Sequence record: PP925839.1
Source: Escherichia phage PinkRuby
Direction: 5' to 3' (one strand)
DNA: 64,000 nucleotides
The position numbers were made by a program, and so were the translations under genes. Numbering within the stretch: the first letter of the stretch is position 1; each line of letters starts with the position of its first letter. Positions 1 through 5,416 of the stretch are shown here, piece by piece. The notes under the pieces were generated by a model. The model ran no database searches and was not told where the DNA came from. It saw only the letters and a program-made list of their open reading frames with translations.

Positions 1-112
1 GAATATCCCAGCGATGTGCCATCATTCCAGGCTTACGAGAACCAGTAACTCGTCCCATAAATAAATCTTTATCTTCTGTCATGAAGATAATACCAGCTGA
101 TAATGTTTTCAT
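1..112 (-). CDS. Nudix hydrolase-like protein, N-terminal fragment (gene continues beyond window start)
   Basis: ATG at 112..110 overlaps stop of upstream gene (ATGA); translation MKTLSAGIIFMTEDKDLFMGRVTGSRKPGMMAHRWDI resembles a Nudix N-terminus; not in ORF track because partial. Confidence 0.4.
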   Translation of the reverse strand, partial: MKTLSAGIIFMTEDKDLFMGRVTGSRKPGMMAHRWDI

Positions 113-597
113 TTTAATTTCCTGCATTCAGTGATAAAATTATTTAAATTTTGAGTATATTTCTTTTCATCAAAAATCTTTTGCTGCCTACGTAACCGCC
201 ATGGCATTTCAATGAACACGCACCATATTCCTGATAGTACTGCTGCTGTAAAAATATTAACAAGTATAATTAAAAGAATCCAATCTTCCGTTCTGCCTAC
301 TGGACTTTCTCCAAAGAAGCAAAATACAAATGATGTCACAGGAAAACTAATAATATACCACAGAATAACCTTCTTATCTGTGAACCAATCAGCGTTCGTT
401 AACTTAGCACGACCATTTTGAATACACACGAATTTATCATCTGTTACAGTAGATGGCTTAACTGCTTGATATCCCATTCTAAACTCCCTAATTAATCGTT
501 TCTTTGTATCTTCAGAACAGCCGCTCCAGTCAACTCTATCGACTGAAATGCCATCGTCCCCATCATCTAAATCATACCAGCGAGTTTTTAAAATCAT
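109..597 (-). CDS. hypothetical protein with two C-terminal predicted transmembrane helices
   Basis: ORF track 162 aa; ATG start; hydrophobic stretches VILWYIISFPVTSFVFCFF and WILLIILVNIFTAAVLSGIWCVF; stop/start overlaps with neighbours. Confidence 0.6.
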   Translation of the reverse strand: MILKTRWYDLDDGDDGISVDRVDWSGCSEDTKKRLIREFRMGYQAVKPSTVTDDKFVCIQNGRAKLTNADWFTDKKVILWYIISFPVTSFVFCFFGESPVGRTEDWILLIILVNIFTAAVLSGIWCVFIEMPWRLRRQQKIFDEKKYTQNLNNFITECRKLK

Positions 598-968
598 TTG
601 ATTTTCCTACAATCATTCACGAATTCTTTCATTGATTCATTTTCAATATAAGACATGTAGTTATTATATTCTTTTAATTGTATTTTGTAATCCTTTTTTC
701 TTTGCCAATTTATTTTAAAATTATCATAATGAAAATATAAAATGATACTAAAGAATGAAAATAATGAAATTGCTATAGTATAATGAAGTTCACTCCAAAC
801 TTCTATTATATCTACTATACCGCTGACGTTACTGCGGATGTTTAAAATAATACAGTCAATCATTAATCCAATAAGACTACCAGCAAGAGCTGCAGCCAAC
901 GCCACAGCAAAAATTAAAAATGACTCAGAAAAAGAATATTTGACTTTATTTAGTTTTGGCTTTTGCAT
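594..968 (-). CDS. hypothetical small membrane protein (two predicted TM helices)
   Basis: ORF track 124 aa; ATG start inside 3' end of upstream gene; hydrophobic segments. Confidence 0.6.
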   Translation of the reverse strand: MQKPKLNKVKYSFSESFLIFAVALAAALAGSLIGLMIDCIILNIRSNVSGIVDIIEVWSELHYTIAISLFSFFSIILYFHYDNFKINWQRKKDYKIQLKEYNNYMSYIENESMKEFVNDCRKIK

Positions 969-1342
969 CGTGATTCCTTAACAAATTTCATAATTTCATT
1001 AAATTCATACATATTTAGTTTAAGCTGGTGTTCCTTTTTAATCTTTTTACACTGAGCTTTCCATTCACGTACACGTTTACGATAATGCCTTCCTTGATAC
1101 CAATATCCTACCCAATTTACAGGTACCAATAAAAATGGAACTACAAATGGAAGAATTAATACGAACAAAAATATTACGCCAGATTCAATATCAGTCATAA
1201 AGTCTATAACCATTCCAACAATCAATAGAATTACAAATGATATAGCTGTCACAGGACCTATTAATATATCAGTAGGAATTAGCTGGCGCTTTAATTCATA
1301 CTTCACAGGTTTACTTGGAAGGTATAGTGATGGCTTTGACAT
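950..1342 (-). CDS. hypothetical small membrane protein (two predicted TM helices, basic C-terminus)
   Basis: Track ORF 950..1363 begins on a TTG; first ATG (MSKPSLYLPSK...) at 1342 preceded by AAGGAA; junction sequence homologous to that of the next gene. Confidence 0.5.
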   Translation of the reverse strand: MSKPSLYLPSKPVKYELKRQLIPTDILIGPVTAISFVILLIVGMVIDFMTDIESGVIFLFVLILPFVVPFLLVPVNWVGYWYQGRHYRKRVREWKAQCKKIKKEHQLKLNMYEFNEIMKFVKESRCKSQN

Positions 1343-1916
1343 ATTCTCTACATTCCTTAACAAATTTTTCTAATAATAAATCGCTTTCAAAATTAGGATT
1401 TTCCACGAATTTATCAAAAAGATCATCAACAATAGTTAAGATATTCTTTTTGCTAAGAATACGTTTATTTTCATATTTTGTTTCAGAGTCAACTATAAGA
1501 GTAAAGAAATATTTCTTTCCCTGAAATTTTACCGTAGTATCAATATAAAATAAATTTGACTTTTGTAAATTACGTTTAAACCATGCGTCACTTAAACTAT
1601 AAACGCCAAGATAATCATAATCGTCATTTAAATAACAAACTGTCCATTCAGGAGAAATGAAATCAGTAAATTCAACATCAAAATCACACGTCAATGAATG
1701 AATTGATTCAATACTTTTAATGAGTATTCCAGGACGTATTAAAGACTTTTTACCTTTATAAAATCCAGAAAGACTTTCATCAGTTTCATATGAAGACCCC
1801 CAATAGTAATTACGTCCTTCTGCCATACGTTTAAGAGCATTTAATAATTGATCTGGAACATCAACCTGTCTTTGGAACTCTTCAAACATTGAATTGAAAT
1901 CACTTTGCATTTTCAT
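1311..1916 (-). CDS. hypothetical protein
   Basis: ORF track 201 aa; ATG start; no recognisable motif. Confidence 0.6.
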   Translation of the reverse strand: MKMQSDFNSMFEEFQRQVDVPDQLLNALKRMAEGRNYYWGSSYETDESLSGFYKGKKSLIRPGILIKSIESIHSLTCDFDVEFTDFISPEWTVCYLNDDYDYLGVYSLSDAWFKRNLQKSNLFYIDTTVKFQGKKYFFTLIVDSETKYENKRILSKKNILTIVDDLFDKFVENPNFESDLLLEKFVKECREYVKAITIPSK

Positions 1917-1926
1917 TCCTACTCAC

Positions 1927-1946
1927 TCCAAGTAATAGGGGCCGAA
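1927..1946 (-). terminator. GC-rich tetraloop hairpin between 1958..2551 and 1311..1916
   Basis: GGGGC-CGAA-GCCCC on plus strand (UUCG loop on minus-strand RNA); same hairpin type recurs near 42752-42768 and 63462-63478. Confidence 0.45.
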
Positions 1947-1957
1947 GCCCCTTATCA

Positions 1958-2551
1958 TTATTTCAGAGAATTAATATATTCCTGAACATCGGCAGAGGTA
2001 GTTTCAACCCCAGAAATATTGCCATTAAAGGTTTCAACTCGAGCAAGAGTATCTTCAATATCAACCTTAGTCAGTGCTGCAATTTCAACTACATCATCAG
2101 CAGTACTAATTCCAAGGGCATTTGCTGCACGAGTTTCACGGATATATTCCAATTTAACTGCAAGTTCTTGGCGAGCATCATCCAATTCAACTACTTTCTT
2201 GGCGATTTCAATTCGCATTTCAGCATAACCATCAGCTTTAGTAGTCAACTGTTCAGCTGTTCGACGATATAGCAAGCCGAGTTTAGCATGCATTGTTACA
2301 TCTTGACCTTCAGAAAGAAGCTTGCGAATTTCACGCTCTTTTGATTCGGCCTGCTTATTCTTTTCGACAATAAGTTCACGAATACGCTTTTCTTCATTAA
2401 TAGATTTAACAGAAGCAGTTTTTAGATCTTTAATCTTATCAAGTAGTTTTGCTGCCGCAGCAGTATACTGTTCTTCAACAGATAGATTTTTAGCCATAGC
2501 AGAACCAAGTTTAGTGCGAATAAACTCAACAATTTTCTTCAGTGTGTTCAT
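1958..2551 (-). CDS. hypothetical coiled-coil protein
   Basis: ORF track 197 aa; charged, heptad-like composition; early promoter-like element upstream (2596-2625). Confidence 0.65.
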
Positions 2552-2595
2552 AACATTTCCTTTAGTTAATTAAGGGTTTTATAATCCGTGGGAGT

Positions 2596-4202: not shown

Positions 4203-4206
4203 AATG

Positions 4207-4680
4207 TTATTTGATTTGTTTAGCAGACCAAATGCGGTCTTTAATAATCTTTTGGATGTCTTCAACATACTCTAGGTCATGAGCATGTGGATTATCTTTG
4301 AAACTATGAGCTCGCGCAAGTTTCTGGCCTTCGGTCTTAATTATCAAAAGTTCTTTAAGAATTGCTTCATACCTAGAGATAATTCCTTTAGCAATATTTT
4401 TTTCTTGTGCTGCTTTAGGGTCAGCCTTAGGAGCAGGTTTACCTGAAGCCTTTGCAAAAGCAGCTCCAGTAGCAACTAAACTTTTCCAAGCCATACTAAC
4501 TGCATTCCCTGTAAATCCTTCGGCTTTCATATCACGAGCAAATTGGAATCGTGATTCATCGGAAGCATCTTTATAGGAATATTTACCCGCGGCAATGGCA
4601 GCTTTTGCGACAGCTTGAATTTCGGTGCTAGATGCTTCATTTAACACCGCTTCATTTAAAAATTGAGCATATGATTTCAT
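4207..4680 (-). CDS. capsid-targeted internal protein (IPII position, divergent)
   Basis: 157 aa; N-terminus MKSYAQFLNEA is CTS-like; TATAAATA late promoter on minus strand at 4717-4724; flanked by 33-bp direct repeats. Confidence 0.55.
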   Translation of the reverse strand: MKSYAQFLNEAVLNEASSTEIQAVAKAAIAAGKYSYKDASDESRFQFARDMKAEGFTGNAVSMAWKSLVATGAAFAKASGKPAPKADPKAAQEKNIAKGIISRYEAILKELLIIKTEGQKLARAHSFKDNPHAHDLEYVEDIQKIIKDRIWSAKQIK

Positions 4681-4716
4681 CTTATTTCCTGTTTTAATTC
4701 GTGGTTTTAATATACT

Positions 4717-4724
4717 TATTTATA
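4717..4724 (-). promoter_or_regulatory. late promoter TATAAATA driving the IPII-position gene
   Basis: Exact TATAAATA on minus strand about 35 nt upstream of ATG, with AGGAA ribosome-binding site. Confidence 0.55.
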
Positions 4725-4757
4725 CTAAAAAGCCCCAACCTTTCGGCTGGGGCTAAG
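4725..4757 (-). terminator. 33-bp repeat copy 2: identical hairpin terminator upstream of 4207..4680
   Basis: Perfect 33/33 match CTAAAAAGCCCCAACCTTTCGGCTGGGGCTAAG (plus-strand reading); followed on minus strand by TATAAATA (4717-4724). Confidence 0.65.
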
Positions 4758-4802
4758 CCTCGCGGCAACCTTGTCGGGGTTCCACCTGCTAAGGCAAGTG
4801 TT

Positions 4803-4898
4803 TGTACGAAACGCCGGGATTCGAACCCGGTTATTAAGCAGTTGACGCTACTCAATATTTTTAAAAGGCCATATCTCGACCATATCCGAACGTTCCGT
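4803..4898 (-). ncRNA. candidate tRNA-like small RNA (8-bp acceptor-like stem plus perfect T-arm)
   Basis: Minus strand has CCGGG-UUCGAAU-CCCGG; ACGGAACG (about 4898-4891) can pair with CGUUUCGU 3' of the T-arm; body non-canonical; lies in a 385-nt ORF-free gap. Confidence 0.3.
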
Positions 4899-5065
4899 CA
4901 AAAACGCTACTCGGCTTACGGCAAAGATATTTCCTCGAATCGATAATTCGGTGCGCCGTTTCTGCTGTGATGTAAGAGGGCATCAACAAATCATAAAGAT
5001 TTATTAACACAATTCCTTACTCAGGGAACATCAGTCCGACGACTTACCGGTAGCGATCCGGTTTC

Positions 5066-5416
5066 TTAATATTCTTTTAAAGCATCAATCTGTTCACGAC
5101 GTTTACGCCATAAATCAATTGCTTCATACGCAGATTCAGCATTTCGAATTGGACGGCATTTATATAAAGACTTGTGATTTTGATATTGTGTAGATAACGG
5201 AATTTTATCTAAAAGGTCTTTACGTTCAAAGTATTCGTAACCATCTAAGCCAAATGAACGATTTTTGAGAAATTGCCAATGACCAAATTCGTTTTGAATA
5301 TAAATATAATCCGCGTGTTGATAAAGTAAATTAATTTCACGAAATGAGATATGTTTTTCATATTCATTGAAGTAAAATGTTAAATCATGAACTACTAAAT
5401 AAACATTACCTTTCAT
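5066..5416 (-). CDS. hypothetical protein
   Basis: ORF track 116 aa, ATG start, immediately downstream of tRNA-Arg. Confidence 0.5.
   Translation of the reverse strand: MKGNVYLVVHDLTFYFNEYEKHISFREINLLYQHADYIYIQNEFGHWQFLKNRSFGLDGYEYFERKDLLDKIPLSTQYQNHKSLYKCRPIRNAESAYEAIDLWRKRREQIDALKEY

Follow-up and report, generated by a model that had tools for sequence, protein, structure and literature searches.

The 64,000-nucleotide stretch of Escherichia phage PinkRuby considered here (PP925839.1, hereafter the window) opens on a region that, read from its letters alone, seemed to depart from the arrangement in phage T4: genes for internal proteins (IPs) appeared to lie between the tRNA array and a Nudix-like gene, and the lysozyme gene e could not be found. 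Has the region been rearranged, or does a conventional locus simply end at the edge of the window and carry something extra? We favor the second answer, with a probability of roughly 80%: the T4 order is kept, e is cut off by the edge, and an insertion of 1.2 kb carries two genes, here called A and B, for what are probably head proteins that would be injected into the host. As a matter of gene order the finding is ordinary, and the apparent anomaly is unimportant, being an edge effect combined with an insertion common to hundreds of deposited genomes; the two genes themselves are a modest lead. The source group of the window is Tequatrovirus, its closest relative being Shigella phage KRT47 (species Tequatrovirus ime09), with 97.4% identity at 100% query coverage for positions 1-9000, a segment matched by 1171 phage records.

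Gene order and the position of lysozyme gene e

All genes in positions 1-9221 lie on the minus strand, and those shared with T4 occur in T4 order: nudE, e.2-e.8, rnaC, rnaD, the tRNAs, trna.2-4, an IP gene, 57B, 57A and gene 1. The map (Table 1) is based on the annotated relatives ime09, KRT47 and T4, on PHROG matches and ARAGORN, and on alignment to the T4 RNAs. The T4 record itself reads denV, ipII, ipIII, e, nudE, e.2-e.8, rnaC, rnaD, tRNAs (with segB), trna.2-4, ipI, 57B, 57A, 1, so that the order given in the original prediction was correct; the claim that the window departs from it was mistaken, and the "several small genes" listed there are e.8 to e.2, in T4 order. Alignment by blastn is collinear, T4 locus 5365-8855 corresponding to window 1-3509 (91%) and 8826-9169 to 4722-5066 (95%), and the comparison with ime09 is likewise collinear. 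By these alignments the shared genes keep the T4 order, and no rearrangement is indicated.

The absence of e has a simple explanation. The Nudix-like gene starting at 112 is indeed nudE, as had been surmised: its 37 codons within the window (MKTLSAGIIFMTEDKDLFMGRVTGSRKPGMMAHRWDI) match residues 6-42 of T4 NudE at 36 of 37 positions, and it stands beside e.2 where contigs with an identical e.2 have a full 146-aa NUDIX gene, the Nudix box itself lying outside the window. It was also correctly seen that no open reading frame (ORF) resembling e is present, the sole match to T4 e in a tblastn search of the 64 kb being the lysozyme domain of gp5 (12325-12822; 43% identity, E 2e-35). Gene e is missing because the sequence stops inside nudE, at codon 37 of 146, before e is reached. 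It is the next gene after nudE in T4, PST, ime09 and KRT47 (spacing about 37 nt), and in each of the six public contigs with an e.2 protein identical to that of the window, 36-37 nt separate a 146-aa NUDIX gene from the 164-aa Phage_lysozyme gene that comes next, with denV and/or IP genes beyond it. Judged from these relatives, the start of e is to be expected some 366 nt left of position 1; of the two alternatives originally offered, that e "lies beyond the window edge" is the one borne out by the cut nudE and by the neighborhood of e in relatives. Both A and B occur in three of the same six contigs and B alone in the other three.

An insertion of two tandem cassettes at the rnaC terminator

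The one segment between e.8 and rnaC that is without counterpart in T4 occupies window 3510-4721. The two T4 segments found by blastn overlap by 30 nt, which represent the rnaC terminator, and the insertion point lies exactly at the 3' end of that terminator. The insertion consists of two tandem cassettes, whose presence or absence is independent of one another; in each, a late-promoter-like motif ((T/A)ATAAATA) and a ribosome-binding site precede the ORF, and an intrinsic terminator closes it. Read along the coding strand, the order is: rnaC terminator, TATAAATA, ribosome-binding site and gene B, a copy of the terminator, AATAAATA, gene A, a third terminator, and finally the sequence that follows the rnaC terminator in T4. 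On this strand the 64 kb contain only nine motifs of the TATAAATA kind. The same arrangement of TATAAATA after a terminator recurs in CM8 and in Klebsiella phage KpV477, and AATAAATA follows a terminator in Shf125875.

When the junctions of T4, which has no cassette, are aligned with those of CM8 (only B), IME340 (only A) and the window, which has both, the borders of the cassettes coincide exactly with GGGGCTTTTT(A/G)G. The cassettes are therefore separate modules, open to gain or loss through recombination between terminator copies. Their modularity is further supported by a sharp mosaic boundary in the comparison with KRT47: across the 564 nt of gene A there is no difference, and across the 474 nt of its neighbor, gene B, there are 37. 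A further repeat of 42 nt (family D5, 76% identity) spans the 5' ends of A and B and includes the ribosome-binding site. The protein encoded by gene B is identical to that of Escherichia phage A6-6.

Proteins A and B begin with a capsid-targeting sequence

The N-terminus of A (187 aa) reads MKTYAEFLTE/A and that of B (157 aa) MKSYAQFLNE/AVLNE/A, compared with MKTYQEFIAE/A in IPIII and IPII; the slashes mark candidate gp21 sites, seen in the sequences as LTE/A in A and as LNE/A, twice, in B. Both N-termini align with those of IPI, IPII, IPIII, IpIV, IpV and IpVI, and both have the residues that define the MKTYxEF(I/L)xE-type decapeptide (an aromatic residue at 4, F7, I/L at 8 and E10), in each case as Y4, F7, L8 and E10. 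In IPIII, residues 4 and 7 serve targeting and residues 8 and 10 serve processing, and its first 10 residues are enough to package foreign proteins, including green fluorescent protein (GFP) and beta-galactosidase (PMC9026906). Six-frame translation of the window yields three instances of the capsid-targeting pattern, all at the start of a real ORF, where 0.05 would be expected by chance (100 shuffles). It is retained in homologues only 39-42% identical to B overall, and is kept in distant B homologues in which the C-terminal domain has been replaced (MKFKEFLAE, MLEYSEFLKE).

The original prediction was right that two ORFs with an IP-type N-terminus lie between the tRNAs and nudE, and wrong in labeling them "IPII-position" and "IPIII-like", since similarity in BLASTP ends with the first 10-12 residues. 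Nor is the first gene to the left of the tRNAs an IP gene, as had been supposed: that place is held by a 116-aa ORF (phrog_3355) without a capsid-targeting sequence, and rnaC and rnaD lie there as well. We rejected A and B as orthologues of IPII or IPIII on the same N-terminal limit, BLASTP aligning residues 1-12 at most and the mature parts being without similarity; the comparison with Ip4 of ime09 also yielded nothing beyond the first 10-12 residues, so that no homology to any named IP compared was detectable. The two proteins were likewise rejected as demonstrated paralogues of one another, the part common to them in BLASTP being the targeting peptide only and the profile-profile probability 28%. 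Both nevertheless match phrog_2280 (E 1e-53 and 2e-59).

The ratio of nonsynonymous to synonymous substitution rates (dN/dS), taken against relatives with up to 9% nucleotide divergence, is 0.02-0.06 for A and 0.03-0.08 for B. With values this low, A and B are real genes under strong purifying selection. The mature proteins are basic, each with an isoelectric point (pI) of about 9.5. Searches of Pfam and NCBIfam gave nothing above threshold for either, the sub-cut-off hits being to cytochrome b562 (A) and, for the 116-aa ORF, DUF2654; a sequence search of the PDB gave no match to A or B. AlphaFold models, with predicted local distance difference test (pLDDT) scores of 77 for B and 63 for A, are all-helical, an N-terminal domain being joined through a flexible linker to a helical hairpin at the C-terminus. 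Foldseek comparison of the B model with PDB and BFVD returned generic helical hairpins or self-hits only, the A model being too poor to search.

Distribution of the cassettes

Set against the 727 phage records that contain the rnaC/rnaD segment, gene A is found in 164 (all at least 85% identical) and gene B in 511, the latter including homologues from Mosigvirus and Jiaodavirus; at least 80% of the whole insertion is present in 127. By these counts the T4 state, with neither cassette, is not the usual one. All records of both genes are annotated "hypothetical", and the clusters that represent them in a large protein database (14 for B, 11 for A) include none that is named. Presence varies between close relatives, T4 and PST having neither, CM8 only B and IME340 only A. 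Beyond the genus, the B homologue of Mosigvirus Shf125875 is about 74% identical and occupies the same site, immediately downstream of the terminator at the end of the tRNA/rnaC region, and that of Jiaodavirus KpV477, also at the same site, is about 59% identical in the N-terminal domain only; (T/A)ATAAATA again follows the terminator in both.

The KpV477 homologue (2995-3231) has an in-frame TAA after 78 codons, beyond which the remaining frame continues, intact in Klebsiella phage KP01; the stop reflects either a pseudogene or a sequencing error. A separate observation concerns a 94-aa protein from a Logan assembly, in which the middle of trna.3 is fused to the last 28 residues of gene B. 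This fusion implies a natural deletion that took out the tRNA cluster in full, together with rnaC/rnaD and the greater part of gene B.

Possible functions and alternative explanations

A and B are probably additional injected internal proteins encoded at a third IP site. They would be transcribed late, as suggested by the placement of TATAAATA 44 nt before the ATG of B, by the presence of only nine such motifs on this strand in 64 kb and by the retention of the motif in a Klebsiella phage. The N-terminal decapeptide would take both proteins into the prohead scaffolding core, gp21 would cleave after E10 (in B possibly after E15), and the basic mature proteins would stay in the head with the DNA and then be injected into the next host, where, to judge from Ip1, Ip2, Ip3 and Bas37_0260, they would most plausibly counter a first-line defence, for example a type IV restriction enzyme. 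Ip1, Ip2 and Ip3 each act as inhibitor of a different GmrSD enzyme (PMC12373910), and IPIII is required on ECOR17 (PMC9391042). Bas37_0260, which only its N-terminus marks as an IP, inhibits McrBC (preprint 10.1101/2025.11.20.689424). Type IV restriction is the specific target of all four IPs whose function has been established (PMC12373910; 10.1101/2025.11.20.689424). By this analogy, blocking of type IV restriction is our best guess for the role of A and B, held at somewhat less than even odds, with a generic DNA-associated role in the head as the main alternative.

Several points weigh against this interpretation. The place assigned to e in this phage rests on relatives. Gene A is preceded only by a late-promoter motif with one mismatch. 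The control signals of A and B are unlike those of the classical IP genes: in T4 ipI, ipII and ipIII, as in the equivalent genes of PST and KRT47, an early promoter overlapped by an inverted repeat immediately precedes the gene, and the nearest 110 nt contain no TATAAATA. A protein in a fast arms race would be expected to diversify in sequence, which A and B, under strong purifying selection, do little; variation in presence or absence could substitute for such diversification. Neither structure prediction nor fold searching pointed to a function, and the database records, all "hypothetical", hold nothing on packaging, cleavage or injection of A or B. The literature is equally sparing: a search on T4-like coliphages found no virion proteomics covering A and B, and a 2010 review by Petrov does not mention internal proteins. 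The supplement of PMC12373910 names ip4-10 without giving their sequences.

A rearrangement, the other alternative offered by the original prediction, would have ipII and ipIII moved from beside e into the interval between e.8 and the tRNAs, with e lost or relocated. Two ORFs with an IP-type N-terminus are indeed found there, one of them close to IPIII in length (187 versus 193 aa), and the 64 kb hold no homologue of e besides the gp5 domain. This absence is uninformative, however, as the edge cuts nudE, and the mature parts of A and B share nothing with IPII or IPIII; relatives that carry both A and B have retained e and IP genes where these normally lie, and the shared genes are all collinear with T4. 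We therefore consider a rearrangement very improbable. That A and B are chance open frames in AT-rich intergenic DNA can practically be dismissed: although Pfam and NCBIfam offer no match and every record reads "hypothetical", the substitution pattern refutes it, each frame has its own ribosome-binding site and terminator, homologues occur in three genera, and both proteins match the same PHROG.

The remaining explanations accept A and B as real genes and differ over what becomes of their products. They might be late proteins that are never packaged and act in the cytoplasm of the producing cell, the IP-like N-terminus being a by-product of recombination in a shared 5' end and translation-initiation region. 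The 42-nt repeat could provide the substrate for such recombination, the regulatory context is unlike that of classical IP genes, and the proteomic silence noted above is compatible with this. Yet a decapeptide that alone suffices to package GFP and beta-galactosidase should bring any late-expressed carrier into proheads, all four of its key residues are present, and its persistence in B homologues of such low overall identity argues for selection at the protein level; we judge this explanation distinctly unlikely. Somewhat less so, but still unlikely, is that A and B are packaged and have a generic role in the head (charge neutralization or DNA condensation) with no host-specific counter-defence. 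The basic character of the mature proteins, their high conservation without diversification, and the failure of ten other ip genes (ip1-10) to give reproducible new inhibition of five newly identified active GmrSD systems (PMC12373910) all accord with a generic role. On the other side, the cassettes are dispensable (both are lacking from T4 and PST, and many phages have just one), which fits an accessory, host-dependent function, and the IPs whose function is known are without exception specific inhibitors.

If A and B are injected proteins, as we favor, a broader proposal can be entertained, though only tentatively and with more doubt than the restriction-blocking role: that the interval between e.8 and the rnaC terminator is an unrecognized third IP locus of the Tevenvirinae, extending from Tequatrovirus to Mosigvirus and Jiaodavirus and made up of late-promoter/terminator cassettes, which here would supply two new injected proteins directed at defences outside the range of Ip1-3. 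T4 would then simply be one phage without the locus. What gives the two genes their interest is that they are widespread among T4-like phages, are annotated "hypothetical", and carry a full head-targeting signal outside the two loci where IPs are usually sought. Because the IPs of known function all block type IV restriction, A and B are candidate host-range determinants in therapeutic T4-like phages, and they would also illustrate how a capsid-targeting sequence delivers cargo in nature.

Neighboring genes and repeated elements

Table 1. Features of the left part of the window, in order of position
Feature	Position	Strand	Basis and remarks
nudE, 5' part (first 37 codons)	1-112	-	Cut by window edge; start codon overlaps e.2 stop; annotated nudE / nudix hydrolase at same position in ime09, KRT47
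e.2, 162 aa, predicted membrane protein	109-597	-	phrog_2203, E 9e-78; annotated e.2 in ime09; collinear with T4
e.3	594-968	-	phrog_2330, E 2e-61; position as in ime09, T4
e.4, 130 aa from the ATG used in relatives	950-1342	-	phrog_2604, E 4e-70; ime09, T4
e.5, 201 aa	1311-1916	-	Annotated e.5 in ime09; PF26876 Phage_T4_Y06P in identical-context contigs
e.6	1958-2551	-	phrog_1203, E 8e-88; ime09, T4
e.7	2626-2958	-	phrog_7266, E 6e-61; KRT47 annotation "similar to T4 e.7"
e.8, 87 aa	3014-3277	-	phrog_2678 matches ORF residues 19-105; T4 start MDNYGELF; KRT47 annotates 264 bp
Early-promoter-type element upstream of e.8	3311-3379	-	Repeat family D2; promoter scan match 3350-3322
Terminator-like hairpin and T-run closing cassette A	3491-3509	-	Right boundary of insertion versus T4; junction alignment
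IP-like gene A, 187 aa	3518-4081	-	phrog_2280
AATAAATA, one-mismatch late-promoter-like motif	4121-4128	-	46 nt before gene A ATG; weak evidence on its own
Terminator after gene B	4176-4199	-	Exact copy of rnaC terminator hairpin, inside 40-nt repeat 95% identical (repeat family D4)
IP-like gene B, 157 aa	4207-4680	-	phrog_2280
TATAAATA, T4 late-promoter consensus	4717-4724	-	Directly after rnaC terminator, 44 nt before gene B ATG
rnaC terminator hairpin	4731-4754	-	Left boundary of insertion versus T4
rnaC (small stable RNA, species 1)	4805-4943	-	137/139 nt identical to annotated T4 rnaC
rnaD (species 2 RNA)	4950-5066	-	110/116 aligned nt identical to T4 rnaD
116-aa ORF, RB69ORF150c type, function unassigned	5066-5416	-	phrog_3355, E 1e-52; absent from T4
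Array of 11 tRNA genes (Arg, His, Asn, Tyr, Met, Thr, Ser, Pro, Gly, Leu, Gln)	5435-6455	-	ARAGORN; Rfam
trna.2	6553-6840	-	
trna.3	6843-7262	-	
trna.4	7225-7410	-	
IpV-type internal protein gene	7481-7738	-	
57B	7811-8266	-	
57A	8266-8508	-	
Gene 1	8508-9221	-	

Two of the small genes differ in extent from their usual description. The longest ORF for e.8 (3014-3331, 105 aa) is 18 codons longer at its 5' end than the gene of T4 and relatives; since this extension overlaps the early-promoter element, 3277 is likely the true start. The e.2 protein has 162 aa in the window and 102 aa in T4, where a 160-nt gap comes after nudE. As the window protein matches one PHROG over its full length and two others over its N-terminal or its C-terminal part alone, the comparison suggests that the T4 reference e.2 is a truncated form.

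The denV-e locus is itself variable in this lineage, some close relatives having no denV between vs.8 and e and, instead, two IP genes (157 and 105 aa). Such loci are found in KRT47 (3103-4140) and in another relative (7457-8336), other relatives having denV and one IP gene. At the ipI locus (7481-7738) the window carries not ipI but an 85-aa gene of the IpV/Ip5 type (phrog_3499), with only the targeting peptide in common with T4 IPI. An IP at the same locus in phage Bas37 is reported to inhibit McrBC (preprint 10.1101/2025.11.20.689424). Bracketing this gene are two of the three copies (7428-7496 and 7758-7826) of a 69-nt element whose third copy lies at 3311-3379 (family D2; 62-84% identical to the reference copy), and which contains the T4 early-promoter-type sequence TTTACA, 17 nt, TACTAT.

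The tRNA array comprises 11 genes, compared with 8 in T4, His, Asn, Tyr and Met being added and Ile absent; segB is missing from the region, and the 116-aa ORF lies between rnaD and tRNA-Arg. A permissive-threshold Rfam search over 4650-5750 identified tRNAs only, with no family for rnaC or rnaD and none in the 114-nt gap between tRNA-His and tRNA-Asn (5591-5704).

Comparison with known systems

The T4 internal proteins and the Ip4-Ip10 series of T-even phages were reportedly described by Repoila et al. in 1994 and by Mullaney and Black in 1996, the former of whom are said to have found IP genes flanked by an element of roughly 70 bp that combines an early promoter with an inverted repeat. Like T4 IPI, IPII, IPIII and Ip4-Ip10, proteins A and B start with a targeting peptide, about 10 residues long, that terminates in (L/I)xE ahead of A or S; like the T-even IPs in general they are small, basic and dispensable, have mutually unrelated mature parts, vary in presence and identity between close relatives, and are encoded next to short repeated regulatory sequences. 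They differ in location, being encoded at a third site (e.8 to rnaC) rather than at denV-e or trna.4-57B; the literature of 2025 still speaks of "two Ip loci" (PMC12373910). They differ also in being preceded by a terminator and a late-type motif of the TATAAATA class, rather than by an early promoter with an inverted repeat, in varying by presence or absence instead of by sequence, and in never having been annotated as IPs. The flank of about 70 bp is absent at A and B and present around the ipI-locus gene, where the 69-nt element looks like the repeated flank proposed to mediate IP shuffling, or like a promoter-early stem-loop (PeSL).

The PeSL cassettes of T4-type phages are said to have been described by Arbiol et al. 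in 2010 and Comeau et al. in 2014. The insertion resembles them in consisting of single-gene modules bounded by a repeated stem-loop and a promoter, with insertions and deletions exactly at the repeats (PMC4122927). Stem-loop repeats thus stand at the exact borders of A and B, but a late-type TATAAATA motif occupies the place where a sigma-70-like early promoter would be expected, and the stem-loop here amounts to a complete intrinsic terminator, a copy of the one at rnaC.

The likeness to Ip1-3, with their GmrSD targets, and to Bas37_0260, with its McrBC target, is one of function and by analogy only, no similarity of sequence or fold to these proteins having been found for A and B. What is common is the delivery signal and the phage genus, with its glucosyl-hydroxymethylcytosine DNA, and for this reason the same kind of enemy would be expected for A and B.

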